A stretch of 43,501 nt of DNA, taken from the IMG/VR virus record IMGVR_UViG_2547132420_000011; one strand, 5' to 3'. Numbering within the stretch: position 1 is the first letter of the stretch; every line of letters starts with the position of its first letter. The stretch comes from a virus (taxonomy: Duplodnaviria > Heunggongvirae > Uroviricota > Caudoviricetes). The position numbers and the translations under genes were made by a program. Below, piece by piece: positions 4,515 through 20,423 of the stretch. The notes beneath the pieces were generated by a model that saw only the letters and a list, made by a program, of their open reading frames with translations, had not been told where the DNA came from and made no database searches.

Positions 4515-4718
4515 TTACGGTGCTGTTTTAAGTCCTGCCGGGATTTCGTTATTATCCATGTGAATAACTTTATCGACCGGATAACAGTTACCGGGAATTT
4601 TCTGTTCCGCTGCGGCAGCCATGCATTCTTTCATTGAACCGTAAATGTCAATAACCATGTCAACAGGCTCACCAGTATTAAGAAAAACAGTCAGAGTGAG
4701 GGCAATAGTAGTATTCAT
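4515..4718 (-). CDS. Small prophage early protein, unknown function
   Basis: ORF 4515..4772; internal ATG at 4718 (MNTTIAL...) preceded by AGGA; ATGA start/stop overlap with the upstream gene. Confidence 0.45.
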   Translation of the reverse strand: MNTTIALTLTVFLNTGEPVDMVIDIYGSMKECMAAAAEQKIPGNCYPVDKVIHMDNNEIPAGLKTAP

Positions 4719-4903
4719 TGCCAGTATCCTTTTTGCATCGGGCGTAAACGTGCCAGCATTGAAAGAATGCATATTTTATTTAATAGCTCCCGTTCGTATT
4801 TTCTCTTATTAATGGCATCTTCAGTAAATACAGGGTTACTGATTCTGACACCAATTTCAAAACAACCTTCAGACGTATTGACGTTTGGTAATAACGTTTC
4901 CAT
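4715..4903 (-). CDS. Small prophage early protein, unknown function (kil-like position)
   Basis: ORF 4715..4999; ATG at 4903 (METLLPN...) preceded by GAGGA; first gene of the leftward operon; 62 aa. Confidence 0.4.
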   Translation of the reverse strand: METLLPNVNTSEGCFEIGVRISNPVFTEDAINKRKYERELLNKICILSMLARLRPMQKGYWQ

Positions 4904-4920: not shown

Positions 4921-5082
4921 TGAATTTTGTGATGCGGTGCCTGGTGCCTCCAGGTGACGTTAACCAGTTAATAATTAACGCCGGATACAGAGAACCCACC
5001 CATAAGAACCAATACGGAAGTCAACTGGTCTTTTTAACTGTTCCGCGTGCGCTGAGCCGCATTCACCGCATCACAAAATTCA
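4921..5082. repeat. 19-bp perfect inverted repeat (TGAATTTTGTGATGCGGTG, 4921-4939 and 5064-5082) flanking a 124-bp spacer
   Basis: Read directly from the sequence; the arms are exact reverse complements; lies in the divergent intergenic region upstream of the leftward early operon. Confidence 0.7.
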
Positions 5083-5470
5083 CTTTAAAAGGGGCGGGTA
5101 TCATGGGAAAAACAAAACGGATACCCGCCAAAAGGTAATCAACATGGGTTGTTGCAGCGGGGTTGTCACTCAGGCGTATGGTCAACCTGACAACCCGGTG
5201 GACATTTGCGAGGAACGGAGAACCCCCGCCATACTTACCGCCGCGCCATTTCGCGGAGTGCCACAACCGGAAGCGCACGGTCGACGAAAATTTAACGACA
5301 GGCTATCTATGAACCAACAACTTCGCCGTGCGCTTTCGCGTTATGCCCTGACTTTTCAGGGAGATATCCTTTCAGTAAACTGTCAGTGCCGGATGCTCAC
5401 CCGTGTCCGGCGCACGCACTCCACCTCACCCGTGGAGAACTCCTTAATTACTAACCCTCAGGAGGATGAA

Positions 5471-5746
5471 ATGGGGTTTGATGTCAATGAAACTCTTAAC
5501 TCTCTTATACGGAAAATTAATGATTTTGATAAAACACTACAGCATGCTGCGGCGCGTAGTGATATAACATTGTTAGCAATTTCATACCTTGCATCTGCCA
5601 TGAATAAAGATGAAACGGTACGAAAGAATCTCGTTGATTATATCGACTCGCTTCAGCCGGGCACTTTCAACCCTGAGAGCTTCAATCATGAGAAAGAGCA
5701 TGTTAAATCTGTAATTAATTCTCTTGTTTTGAATCAAAAGAATTGA
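5471..5746 (+). CDS. Hypothetical protein, 91 aa (sieB-equivalent position)
   Basis: ATG at 5471 directly preceded by GGAGG (5461-5465); the long upstream in-frame ORF (5144-5470) has Cys/Arg-rich non-protein-like composition; convergent with and overlapping the 3' end of the 5715..6056 gene by 32 nt. Confidence 0.45.
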   Translation: MGFDVNETLNSLIRKINDFDKTLQHAAARSDITLLAISYLASAMNKDETVRKNLVDYIDSLQPGTFNPESFNHEKEHVKSVINSLVLNQKN

Positions 5747-6056
5747 TGCTTCTTGTTACGAAGCAATTTTCAAGGGGTTCTATCCGAATCCCTTTCTTTT
5801 CCATTAACAAGCCAAACCCCTTATTAATGATGTCCATTAATTCCAGGAAGTATTTTTTATGTAAATCCTGGTTATCAGAGAGTTGCTTCTCTTCGTACAG
5901 ACCGATAAAGGCACGACGCACGTTACCGGATATATTATCGATGGTTTCTTTTTCTACGGTACTCAGGTCAAGAGTCGCCAATTGAGAATGAACTATATTC
6001 GCTGCCATTTCCTGGAATGGCATTGGTAAATCTTTAAATTCCATCGTCAACCTCAT
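5715..6056 (-). CDS. Hypothetical protein, 113 aa, translationally coupled to upstream DUF1391-like gene
   Basis: ATG at 6056 overlaps the TGA stop of the upstream gene (ATGA); alternative ATG at 6044 with GAGG; balanced amino-acid composition. Confidence 0.5.
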   Translation of the reverse strand: MRLTMEFKDLPMPFQEMAANIVHSQLATLDLSTVEKETIDNISGNVRRAFIGLYEEKQLSDNQDLHKKYFLELMDIINKGFGLLMEKKGIRIEPLENCFVTRSINSFDSKQEN

Positions 6057-6208
6057 CAGTCAGTATTTCTGGCTAACCAGCGACGCGCGCCAGCTTCGGT
6101 TTTAAACGTTTTGCTTTTGGTATACGTCATCGCCGTGAACGTGCCGTCTTGGTTTGGAAACACGCCGTATACCAGAGACTCGTTGTTGCCAAGATCGATA
6201 GTATCCAT
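6056..6208 (-). CDS. Small prophage protein, DUF1391-like (YdaF/YdfA-like, from memory)
   Basis: ORF 6056..6286; ATG at 6208 (MDTIDLGNNESLVYGVFPNQDGTFTAMTYTKSKTFK...) preceded by GAGG; 50 aa; downstream of the repressor on the same strand. Confidence 0.5.
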   Translation of the reverse strand: MDTIDLGNNESLVYGVFPNQDGTFTAMTYTKSKTFKTEAGARRWLARNTD

Positions 6209-6497
6209 GTTGACCTCATTTCCCCTTAACGCCGGGGTAGCGGAACAAAAACCTGCTGCATAGTTAAAGTTGAACCCTGCCGTCATGTTCTTACGCCTCG
6301 GGCTGGCTACTTAACCCCTGACCACTGCCTGGTAACTCGAAGTATTGCCCTGCATTCTGTAGGATGGGGTGAGGGAATGAATGAAGTTTAGAAAAACGAA
6401 CTTTTCAGGTCAATGTTTTTTTATCAAAACATTTTAAGCAGGCAGCTGTTAAGCCATCACCACGATGGCATACAGTTAATCAAATAGATGAGGTTGG

Positions 6498-7136
6498 TTA
6501 AATATCTTGTTGAATTTTAAAGCATACGCCCAATATGCAAGATAGATCATCCAGCATAATTGAAGGGTAGCGAGGATTCGTGGGGACTAAAAGAATATCC
6601 GGCCCTTCTATCTCCAGTTTACGAATGACAGGTGTTGTGGTCCCTTTGGGTAAGGCAAGGACAATATTTCCTGGTTGTACGGTTCGATCGGGATCAACAA
6701 AAACTGTTGAACCATTTGGGATGGAAACTCCCCCACCAGATGTTGACATACTGTCACTCTCTAGAACAACTGCAAAGGTATTGACCGGGATTTCTCCGAC
6801 AAGCTGCACACAAGAGGTTATTGAGGAATTTTTCATATAATCACTCCAGCTTGCTGCCTGCTGAAGTGATAGTAGCGGAACCGTTTTTATCGGCGGTAAA
6901 GATAGATCAAGCGAATCACCTGTATTTAACTCTCCTCCATTAAGAAGCCAATTTTCGTTTACTTTCAATATTTTTGCCAGTGAACTTATGTAACGCGAGG
7001 ACGGCGCTCCTCCACCGTTCATCCATTGACTTACGGAGCCTTTTGATGCGCCAGTGCCATTGACAAGGTCTTTGCCTTTCAGGTTTAGCGCATGCATACG
7101 TTGGGTTATGCGTTCAGATATAGTTTGCTTGCTCAT
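6498..7136 (-). CDS. cI-like prophage repressor (HTH plus S24 LexA-type peptidase domain)
   Basis: 212 aa; N-terminal HTH region (LKGKDLVNGTGASKGSVSQWMNG), C-terminal S24-like region with Ser (ESDSM) and Lys; divergent from the cro-like gene across an operator region. Confidence 0.85.
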   Translation of the reverse strand: MSKQTISERITQRMHALNLKGKDLVNGTGASKGSVSQWMNGGGAPSSRYISSLAKILKVNENWLLNGGELNTGDSLDLSLPPIKTVPLLSLQQAASWSDYMKNSSITSCVQLVGEIPVNTFAVVLESDSMSTSGGGVSIPNGSTVFVDPDRTVQPGNIVLALPKGTTTPVIRKLEIEGPDILLVPTNPRYPSIMLDDLSCILGVCFKIQQDI

Positions 7137-7227
7137 GTTTTGATTTTAAAACACAGATGGTTTTGTTTCTTGACTTTCTTTGGTTTTGATTATTAAACTT
7201 TTGACGTTCAGTTTTATGGAGCGACTC
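7137..7227. promoter_or_regulatory. Divergent immunity promoter/operator region (OR/PR/PRM analogue)
   Basis: 91-bp AT-rich intergenic region between divergent repressor and cro-like genes; repeated TTGA(C/T)TTT and GGTTTTG motifs. Confidence 0.5.
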
Positions 7228-7458
7228 ATGAAAAAATCAGAAGTATTAGGCTATTTTGGCGGAGTTGTTAAAACAGCCGCAGCTCTTGGAACGTCAAAAA
7301 CCACAGTCAGCATGTGGGGGGAAGAGGTTCCGTGGAAATGGGCGTTGCTAATTCAGGCAGTCACTGCCGGGGCGCTCAAATATGAGTTACACATACCGAC
7401 GGTTGTCATTCCCGGTTCTGATCATAATCCGCCTTCTAACCAAGGGGGGGATTCATGA
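7228..7458 (+). CDS. Cro-like HTH regulator
   Basis: ATG at 7228 preceded by GGAG; 76 aa; HTH-like segment VVKTAAALGTSKTTVSMW; stop overlaps the next gene start (ATGA). Confidence 0.7.
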   Translation: MKKSEVLGYFGGVVKTAAALGTSKTTVSMWGEEVPWKWALLIQAVTAGALKYELHIPTVVIPGSDHNPPSNQGGDS

Positions 7459-7880
7459 AAATCAAGCATGAACACATCCGCATGGCGATGAATGCCTGGG
7501 CGCATCCGGACGGCGAAAAAGTACCGGCTGCGAAAATTACCAAAGCGTATTTCGAGCTGGGAATGACGTTCCCGGAACTGTATGACGACAGCCATCCGGA
7601 AGCCCTGGCTCGCAATACCCAGAAAATTTTCCGCTGGGTAGAGAAAGACACCCCTGATGCAGTTGAAAAAATTCAGGCGTTGTTACCAGCGATCGAAAAG
7701 GCAATGCCACCTTTGCTGGTGGCCAGAATGCGCAGCCACAGTTCAGCTTATTTTCGGGAGCTGGTGGAGACGCGGGAGCGACTGGTGAGAGACGCTGATG
7801 ATTTTGTCGCAGTGGCAATCGCCGGTTTCAATCAGATGAACCGTGGTGGCCCGGCAGGAAATGCTGTGGCAGTACATTGA
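7455..7880 (+). CDS. YdaT-like protein (CII-like regulator position)
   Basis: 141 aa, translationally coupled to cro-like gene; size and position match YdaT of Rac-type prophages (from memory). Confidence 0.55.
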   Translation: MKIKHEHIRMAMNAWAHPDGEKVPAAKITKAYFELGMTFPELYDDSHPEALARNTQKIFRWVEKDTPDAVEKIQALLPAIEKAMPPLLVARMRSHSSAYFRELVETRERLVRDADDFVAVAIAGFNQMNRGGPAGNAVAVH

Positions 7881-19833: not shown

Positions 19834-20423
19834 GGACTGGTTTATTGTATGCCAAATGATTATTAAAAAGGTTGTGTTAATAACAAAATCCGAAATAATA
19901 TGCCTGCATATTTTTATCTTGCTTATATTCTGCATATTGTGCATAGCAGGCTCATCCCTGCAATCAAAACTGTATGATGAGTATTTTTTTTTTCCTTTTT
20001 TCCAGTCATCTGATGATGACCTGCTTCTTTTTAATCCGGATCGACATCAGTTTTTTAAGATAATTCCTGCGAGTTATATGCATAAATACCACAAACTCCG
20101 CATTTTATGTGGTTGGGAGTTGCCGGGCGCGCAGTGAGTTTGCTAAGAAAACTCCTGCATGGTGAATCCCCCTGTGCGGTGGGGTGATACCATTAACCTT
20201 TTCTGTCGCCGACAGGTATCACGAACATTTTGTTCACCGGGAGGCACCCGGCACCATGCACTTCAATAGATTCTCTCCACATTATGGATATTCTTTCAGA
20301 ATATCCCACGCAGACTTTGTGTAAATGTTAACAAATGTGCGTTTTATTTGATCTGATTCGCTGTTTGAGCGTCCAAAACAACGGTATATATAATCCTTTA
20401 CTATATGACATATGTGAGGAAAA

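Follow-up and report, generated by a model that had tools for sequence, protein, structure and literature searches.

A conserved structured leader and ribosome-binding site shared by unrelated small genes, one of them antisense to the early-left operon of an Escherichia coli Qin/dicB-type prophage

We analysed a 43,501-nucleotide (nt) stretch of DNA from a virus of the Caudoviricetes (IMG/VR record IMGVR_UViG_2547132420_000011), the whole of which is called the window below, with attention to a plus-strand gene for a protein of 91 amino acids (aa) at positions 5471 to 5746 and to the DNA directly in front of it (5269 to 5470). Judged by gene content and order, the window is an E. coli prophage of the Qin/dicB type, and the 91-aa gene lies within its early-left operon, facing the opposite way. 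What is unusual is that a conserved structured leader with its ribosome-binding site is common to many unrelated small open reading frames (ORFs) in several prophage backbones, and that the same leader very probably doubles as a processing site for the precursor of the small RNA (sRNA) DicF. None of the papers searched describes these features. The leader and ribosome-binding site serve such small proteins in lambdoid, Rac-like and P2-like prophages of E. coli, Salmonella and Trabulsiella, including those of pathogens (enterotoxigenic E. coli (ETEC) H10407 and Shiga toxin (Stx) phages).

The structured leader and its exchangeable cargo

The leader comprises five predicted stems on the plus strand. 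The long-range stem P0 (5269–5280/5326–5337) is supported by covariation, and P1 (5346–5351/5356–5361), P3 (5387–5396/5403–5412), P4 (5419–5424/5432–5437) and P5 were returned by RNAalifold. In P5 an anti-Shine–Dalgarno sequence, CUCCU (5440–5444), pairs with AGGAG (5460–5464) of the Shine–Dalgarno (SD) sequence across a loop of 15–17 nt. A variable hairpin with a conserved GUAA(A/G)CUG loop region, P2, was seen by eye only and is in neither RNAalifold consensus. Among nine sequences 97% of the cells in P1 to P5 were paired, as against 35–51% in slid controls, and the compensatory change found at four pairs was equalled by one of 500 shuffles. For P0, examined in 16 sequences, 96% of the cells were paired (slid controls 32–58%), and the compensatory change at three positions (12 cells) gave a score that was reached by none of 500 shuffles. 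P5 was intact in all 11 sequences compared, three of which carry U-A to A-U swaps; lambdoid phages of E. coli have the pairing CUCCU:AGGAG, and copies from P2-like and Salmonella Rac-like prophages and from Trabulsiella have CUCCAU:AUGGAG. The leader as it stands in the window folded better than its shuffles on the plus strand (z = -2.54, 0/200 shuffles as good) and did not do so on the minus strand (z = -0.84, 44/200 as good), the plus strand had the lower free energy in nine of nine variants, and the G·U pairs in P0, P3 and a small 5' hairpin become A·C mismatches on the minus strand. At the level of predicted pairing the leader therefore has the conserved, covarying anti-SD/SD helix by which SD-sequestering leaders are recognised. 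In this it resembles RNA thermometers and translational riboregulators, whose anti-SD likewise pairs with the SD and is kept by compensatory change; it differs from SD-sequestering leaders in being, very probably, also part of a processing site on the opposite strand, and no Rfam family matched it.

Over some 200–330 nt upstream of the genes that follow the leader, which we call its cargo, the DNA sequence is conserved in all the backbones concerned. A scan of viral contigs with a 28-nt piece of this left flank gave 120 loci, and other loci brought the number of flank copies to 141. Apart from the copies with no gene behind them, which are considered below, the flank leads into ORFs of at least six types, unrelated to one another and called A to F, each of which starts at CTCAGGAGG(A/G)TGAAATG; the 91-aa gene of the window is of the A type, and ETEC H10407 has the A2 allele. 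An E-type ORF stands behind the flank in an Stx1c phage that encodes an N antiterminator, a 73-aa ORF in the Stx-like phage phi367, and ORFs of 63 and 36 aa in Trabulsiella. At least eight unrelated small ORFs are carried by the leader in all, and the cargo consists of single ORFs of 36–93 aa. When genome contigs were scanned with a degenerate pattern, only two Trabulsiella loci were real among the matches listed, the rest being chance matches in GC-rich genomes. The leader is also found in backbones without dicF, as P3 to P5 in phi367 and Trabulsiella and as the full P0 to P5 in P2-like Salmonella prophages.

Two further occurrences were seen. In Trabulsiella guamensis (L220, 50–704) the 3' part of the leader (P3–P5) is followed by a 36-aa proline-rich ORF, behind which the gene of a 156-aa protein with hydrophobic segments converges on a Cro-like gene beside a cI-like repressor; neither protein had a Pfam or PADLOC match. 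In the Stx2a phage P13374 of O104:H4 (L273, 1801–1842) and several Stx2 podophages only the P3 hairpin is present (GCCGGAUG...UCCGGC), preceded by GUAAGCUGG; it lies just upstream of the start of a leftward gene, with no cargo behind.

The exchanged segment can be delimited on related prophages. A cassette of about 5457 to 6046 begins shortly before the plus-strand SD and ends shortly beyond the ATG of the facing minus-strand gene (5715 to 6044, product beginning MEFKDL). Phage Tritos, phage 204576 and K-12 Qin lack it, and in all three the left flank is joined directly to ydfC. Other strains have the cassette next to ydfB and ydfC, which there lie between the DUF1391 gene and the MEFKDL gene. 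Elsewhere each homologue of the MEFKDL gene is followed by a convergent, overlapping small gene of other sequence, of 73, 92, 77 or 63–69 aa. The G+C content of the cassette is 33–40%, against 49–54% in the leader region to its left. K-12 Qin (L020, 2043–2250) and Tritos (L003) have the whole leader, including the anti-SD CUCCU, with neither SD nor cargo, and the ydfC stop codon abuts it; they seem to be empty sites that arose by deletion or else represent the locus prior to an insertion.

By its presence or absence among near-identical prophages and its lower G+C the 91-aa gene appears moron-like. It also lies opposite to lytic genes, as morons do, with a terminator-like hairpin behind it. 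The unit departs from the usual description of a moron in that its conserved structured leader recurs, together with an identical ribosome-binding site, in front of many unrelated cargo ORFs, and in that scans of the plus strand found no promoter of its own. Rousset et al. reportedly described, in 2022, hotspots of variable anti-phage genes in P2-like prophages and P4 satellites. The hotspots so reported are like the present site in their fixed position, unrelated alternative cargo and conserved flanks, and one of the leader-cargo backbones is itself P2-like, its site lying inside the early operon next to cox. They differ from the present site, where each cargo is a single small ORF and none, of whatever type, matched the PADLOC defence models. 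Exclusion and defence genes such as sieB, rex and bstA are kept against the lytic genes near the immunity region. The arrangement 'antisense to lytic genes' has been named a hallmark of prophage accessory loci (PMC7067206, Owen et al.).

On the other strand the leader belongs to the untranslated region of the early-left transcript. For the 190-nt DicF species of K-12 Qin that ends at the DicF terminator, the 5' end, expected about 190 nt upstream of that terminator, falls inside what is the 3' arm of P0 on the operon strand, and KilS has its annotated 5' end in the same arm (PMC8175672). Formation of the Qin 5' end depends on RNase III (PMC10448788), and P0 is therefore very probably the place at which this enzyme cuts the leftward transcript. 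In this light the 'long untranslated region' of dicBF can be re-read, its RNase III site forming one arm of a conserved stem in a larger structured element.

The same stem connects the locus with Rac. The order in K-12 Rac is racR, ydaG, ydaF (DUF1391), sieB (on the opposite strand, over the 3' end of ydaF), the sRNA KilS and kilR, and both arms of P0 are found upstream of sieB there and in the Rac-type phage 666R9, with a compensatory change from A-U to G-C. The resemblance of the sieB leader ends after P0 and a P1-like hairpin, and the SD-sequestering hairpin of the window is not shared with it. Like the 91-aa gene, sieB is embedded in and antisense to the early-left operon, near a DUF1391 gene and a DicF-like sRNA; the sieB-like place that the initial annotation had given this gene cluster was thus found again in position, in orientation and in the homologous P0 upstream. 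The proteins differ: SieB has 162–200 aa with hydrophobic segments, and the 91-aa protein, predicted to be soluble and helical, has no sequence similarity to it and no SieB match in Pfam or PHROG. In the sieB/sas system of P22, sieB is a prophage-expressed exclusion gene controlled by antisense RNA of the PL transcript (PMC7067206, PMC12197685).

The 91-aa gene and its protein family

The plus-strand gene had been described as having a strong SD, and AGGAGG indeed lies at 5460–5465, 5 nt ahead of its ATG. The RefSeq pipeline (PGAP) calls a protein of 145 aa from 5309 in this strain and one of 91 aa in another. The 54-codon extension was rejected both as an N-terminus and as an upstream ORF: its DNA is also present in phages without the gene, it has no codon-position bias, its ATG is missing in several variants, and in others it is interrupted or out of frame. 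Because the extension occurs in the DNA of gene-less phages and is broken in variants, and because the SD and ATG at 5471 are common to unrelated cargo ORFs, 91 aa appears to be the better call. Between two alleles about 15% apart, the ratio of nonsynonymous to synonymous change (pN/pS) was 0.37 for the 91-aa frame, the best of its six frames, about 0.25 for the 109-aa frame of the MEFKDL gene and about 0.13 for the DUF1391 gene. As judged from such comparisons the 91-aa gene is real and under purifying selection, and the other two are likewise real genes, not chance ORFs.

A word-indexed search with the 91-aa protein found 11 clusters only, of which those with a named source were all from E. 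coli. A profile built from the A type alone, run with HMMER against 1.84 billion protein representatives, added one relative of 92 aa (E = 3e-5), which bridges the A type of the window and the B type. The A and B proteins are collinear end to end at 24–33% identity, and their 13-sequence alignment has 12 invariant positions (L12, R29, D31, L34, S38, K46, R51, E74, K75, H77, I82 and S84). A profile search with the family found 44 clusters, whose source-named members all come from E. coli or Salmonella. The proteins of this helical family, about 92 aa long, occur on three backbones: Qin-type lambdoid prophages, Salmonella Rac-like prophages (repressor, 71-aa gene, 93-aa gene on the other strand, ydaE, exonuclease VIII, recT) and Salmonella P2-like prophages (int, C, cox, the gene of a 171-191-aa helix-turn-helix (HTH) protein, 92-aa gene on the other strand). 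In each of these settings the gene runs antisense to the early lytic operon, with 32–41 nt of overlap at the 3' end of the early gene before it. The early proteins that face A and B cargo are unrelated except over the C-terminal ~15 residues, for which the overlapping DNA that they have in common codes. A common origin of all the antisense proteins of 91, 92 and 73 aa was considered and rejected; BLASTP found nothing, the 91- and 92-aa proteins are related through the intermediate, and the 73-aa protein and the other types are unrelated.

The convergent overlap of 32 nt in the window (5715–5746) is as the initial annotation had it, and other variants overlap by 11–68 nt at the same junction. 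Because the facing early proteins and the cargo are exchangeable, this overlap is best read as a by-product of compaction, in which an early frame would enter the cassette and continue until it meets a stop. It had been suggested that the overlap might permit antisense regulation; antisense control of such a gene by the early-left transcript has a precedent in P22 sieB/sas. A terminator-like hairpin with a run of T (5772–5794, plus strand), found by a consensus scan only, lies 26 nt past the 91-aa stop codon, inside the 109-aa coding sequence.

Neither the 91-aa protein nor its neighbour had been given a function from the letters, and remote homology searches and structure prediction likewise yielded nothing assignable. 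The 109/113-aa protein had no assignment in searches of Pfam, NCBIfam and PADLOC. PADLOC 2023 returned sub-threshold noise only (BrxA, E = 0.024, for the 91-aa protein; AbiEi, E = 0.005, for DUF1391), and no paper came up when the literature was searched for the RefSeq protein accessions. From its predicted models, with three or four helices of which the first has 40 residues and hints at a homo-oligomer, the 91-aa protein is a small soluble helical protein. The proposal that these genes are candidates for exclusion or host-lethal functions keeps the sieB-like position as its ground and finds none in homology, since the proteins had no detectable relation to Rex, SieB, Kil or any defence family.

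The early-left operon around the gene

The 1.5 kb round 5471–6208 match the chromosome of E. coli NCCP 13717 with 100% identity; among 5426 complete E. coli genomes, 97 have them at a coverage of at least 80%. Up to 7136, every gene counted from the window's left end is on the minus strand. They follow in the order int, xis, a gene for an 823-aa 3'-5' exonuclease, the DUF1482 (ydfD-like) gene (4515–4718; Pfam and RefSeq), dicB (4715–4903; Pfam DicB, E = 3e-37), which is a downstream gene of the early-left operon, a gap, the 109-aa and DUF1391 genes and the cI-like repressor gene (6498–7136), a 212-aa ORF with HTH_3 and Peptidase_S24 domains. Beyond the repressor, a P22-Cro-like gene and then a YdaT-like gene are on the plus strand. 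Pfam matches were obtained for DUF1391, DicB, DUF1482 and the Rv2179c-like exonuclease, and the gene order agrees with that of K-12 Qin (dicC, dicA, ydfA, ydfB, ydfC, dicF, dicB, ydfD) and of phage Tritos. A promoter-like site, a ydfA-like gene, dicB and a ydfD-like gene thus stand on one strand, the composition of a Qin/dicB-type early-left operon. The window shares with the Qin dicBF operon the succession of repressor, DUF1391 gene, long untranslated region, sRNA hairpin, dicB and ydfD-like gene, and its untranslated region is about 87–95% identical to those of other Qin-type phages and prophages. It differs from Qin in that the convergent pair of 109- and 91-aa genes replaces ydfB and ydfC, and another hairpin replaces DicF. 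In Qin the promoter dicBp, which is repressed by DicA, drives ydfABC-dicF-dicB-ydfD (PMC5069750, PMC10448788).

The DUF1391 gene and the repressor gene are separated by 211 nt, which hold an OL/PL-like control region (6385–6432, minus strand). A 20-nt operator-like palindrome, ATGTTTTTTTATCAAAACAT (6413–6432), overlaps there with a leftward promoter-like sequence, TTGACC-17-TAAACT (6413 to 6385), and related copies of the palindrome are found in the intergenic region between cI and cro (7135–7153 and 7181–7201). Because this operator and promoter-like site separate them from cI, the DUF1391 and 109-aa genes are, as far as the arrangement tells, the first genes of a repressor-controlled early-left operon and lie outside the cI transcript. 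RefSeq calls only the C-terminal 112 aa of the repressor ('LexA family protein', 6498–6836), here and in ETEC H10407; this is probably an artefact of start-site annotation, the 212-aa ORF being intact.

The 50-aa DUF1391-like gene that had been noticed downstream of the repressor on the same strand (6056–6208, minus strand; ydfA/ydaF family, phrog_751) is confirmed as a member of Pfam PF07151, which matched residues 28–74 of the 76-aa ORF with 98.9 bits (cut-off 27.3; E = 1e-28). It is the first early-left gene. The second had been described as a 113-aa gene joined to the first by an ATGA overlap. The ORF of that length exists (5715–6056, minus strand), and the junction of its ATG with the DUF1391 stop codon reads TGATG, an overlap of 1 nt. 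A second ATG, at 6044, is preceded by GAGG and lies 11 nt after the DUF1391 stop codon. This MEFKDL start is used by RefSeq and by every full-length database homologue whose sequence was read, and the upstream ATG is absent from two loci (L002 and L005) in which ydfB and ydfC intervene. Since the conserved start is the second ATG, the true product of the gene is taken to have 109 aa and not 113, with a spacer of 11 nt in place of the reported overlap. The protein matches PHROG 6937 (function unknown; phrog_6937) with E = 1e-65, and its first ~55 residues match four further PHROGs. Its relatives, of 106–137 aa, have a common N-terminal domain and differ in the C-terminal part, which is mosaic. 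A separate module of about 65 aa (…ELKHVIxLLLEDAKRL…EPNAGTEARIW…) was observed in the forward genes of four loci (L012, L024, L085 and L270), where it makes up a stand-alone 71-aa protein, is fused to the back of the MEFKDL domain or of YdfC, or opens a protein of 119 aa. Shuffled modules make up the early genes at this position.

At the position of DicF the window has a different sRNA-like terminator hairpin, UUGAUUACCUUUUGGCGGGUAUCCGUUUUGUUUUUCCCAUGAUACCCGCCCCUUUU (5085–5145, minus strand). Rfam DicF (RF00039) did not match it even at E<=10, and the alignment shows the DicF segment replaced by it. It is a minority variant, found as such or closely similar in about 7 of 110 related loci, the rest having canonical DicF, and it may be an sRNA with a different seed. 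A leftward sRNA promoter predicted here, TTGGTT-17-TAAATT, conflicts with primer extension on Qin (PMC10448788) and agrees with the transcription start site of KilS (PMC8175672). In the conserved block between the hairpin and P0, in Qin-type and P2-like loci, there is a perfect 8-bp inverted repeat, GGTTGTCA(N19)TGACAACC (5166–5196, plus strand), a candidate for a hairpin in the DicF precursor or for a site to which a protein binds.

Readings of the locus and further observations

With slightly more doubt than confidence, we favour reading the 91-aa gene as a moron-type accessory gene that is expressed in the lysogen under translational and antisense control, placed opposite-facing in the promoter-proximal part of a Qin/dicB-type early-left operon. 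The leader and its cargo would form a module transcribed rightward in the lysogen, and translation would be gated, the leader CUCCU pairing with the SD AGGAG in P5 until some signal opens it. On loss of the repressor, leftward early transcription would run through the module and produce a fully complementary RNA, with collision of the transcripts and cleavage by RNase III; the cargo would be switched off by collision and duplex cleavage while the DicF-type precursor is processed at P0. By analogy with sieB, and with low certainty, the 91-aa protein might act in the lysogen against superinfecting phage or might buffer toxic early functions of the prophage itself. Should lysogens express the rightward unit, the leader would offer a sequence handle with which uncharacterised small prophage proteins can be harvested, and would hint at how cargo expression is tied to the state of the repressor.

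Several observations weigh against this reading. The covariation comes from 9–16 related sequences of few lineages and reflects few independent events, and the stems can form on either strand. The leader would be used on the minus strand whatever the plus strand does and is conserved at least partly for processing of the DicF precursor, and therefore it persists in many prophages without cargo, K-12 Qin included; about 80 of the 141 flank copies have no gene behind them. Upstream of or within the leader no convincing plus-strand sigma-70 promoter was found: the scan gave none at 9/12 consensus matches, relaxed scans gave only weak, unconserved candidates, and in phi367 only ~125 nt are available for one. 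The proposed function finds no support in homology, since searches of Pfam, NCBIfam, PADLOC and PDB sequence profiles with the 91-aa protein were empty. Its models have a predicted local distance difference test score (pLDDT) of 61–68, their fold matches are generic helical bundles only, and the protein has no membrane segments, unlike SieB.

Some of these points would also follow if the block from 5145 to 5470 were solely a leftward untranslated region of the dicBF type, made for processing of the DicF-type sRNA through RNase III as well as RNase E, with the plus-strand ORFs as weakly expressed or silent passengers at a recombination-prone boundary and the SD pairing fortuitous. The block is kept in many cargo-less prophages, the scans found no plus-strand promoter, and RNase III-dependent leftward processing has been mapped here, with no other promoter on that strand (PMC10448788). 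Yet the unrelated cargo ORFs all begin at the same SD, spacer and ATG fused to the leader, the leader, in part or whole, travels with cargo into backbones without dicF, compensatory change maintains the SD:anti-SD pairing, both the folding and the distribution of G·U pairs speak for the plus strand, and purifying selection acts on the cargo family, whose conservation extends to 24–33% identity; we consider it improbable that processing is the whole explanation. A little less probable still is a cognate pair, in which the 109-aa protein would be a toxic or host-takeover effector, the lysogen-made 91-aa protein its specific neutraliser and the overlap a device that couples both. The MEFKDL gene and cargo co-occur in Qin-type prophages, the indel of about 5457–6046 removes both, their 3' ends overlap in every variant, and dicBF-type operons are toxic and fire spontaneously in a subpopulation (PMC10448788). 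The partners are exchanged, however. Nearly the same forward protein (83% identity over 104 aa; 109 and 124 aa long) faces A cargo (91 aa), C cargo (73 aa) or nothing (type G), and A or B cargo faces four forward proteins (109/133 aa, 71 aa and, in the P2-like prophages, the HTH protein of 171-191 aa), whose shared C-terminal tails are explained by the shared overlapping DNA. An obligate cognate pair of the toxin–antitoxin kind was rejected on this exchange; the genes are, moreover, convergent and match no toxin–antitoxin family, features that do not fit a type II system.

The initial annotation had taken the DUF1391 and 113-aa genes for a coupled pair downstream of cI. That they would be translationally coupled, co-transcribed with cI in the lysogen in the manner of rexAB, and the carriers of the exclusion or toxic function is, of the readings weighed here, the one we find hardest to credit. 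The pair is on the same strand as cI and directly downstream of it, read-through from the cI transcript is possible, and DicB of the Qin operon has been reported as protective against phage (PMC6832061). It is, however, the 211-nt gap with its operator and promoter-like site that follows cI, and the order is that of the DicA-repressed dicBF operon, of whose repressed transcript ydfA is the first gene (PMC10448788); no homology to Rex was found. Nor do the two genes form an obligate unit: the conserved start leaves a spacer between them instead of an ATGA overlap, and in other strains ydfB and ydfC stand there.

The moron-type reading has a wider form, which we think rather unlikely. The leader (5269–5470) would be a portable RNA platform used on both strands, leftward as an RNase III site that releases DicF or KilS sRNAs and rightward as a gated leader for swapped cargo, of which sieB would be one; the 91-aa family would then be a new lysogen-expressed factor acting against phage or in prophage control. 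The platform would extend over three or more backbones that are unrelated to one another, namely the lambdoid one, which includes Qin-type, N-type, Rac-like and Stx phages, the P2-like one and that of an unclassified Trabulsiella prophage. Were this true, the locus would be a dedicated exchange site for small proteins, with a built-in coupling to the lysis-lysogeny state.

Two minor features of the window were noted besides. Close to the end of the Cro-like gene (7228–7471, plus strand), a 1-nt insertion within a run of G changes the tail of the protein from GGIHENQA to GGDS, leaves the HTH part intact and also alters the GGAGGG before the overlapping YdaT-like gene; RefSeq flags the Cro-like gene as frameshifted. 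The Rfam family STnc100 has a full-length match at 20127–20313 (plus strand, 86.6 bits) and a partial, sub-threshold one of 34 bits at 4926–5080 (minus strand), in the untranslated region just upstream of dicB.

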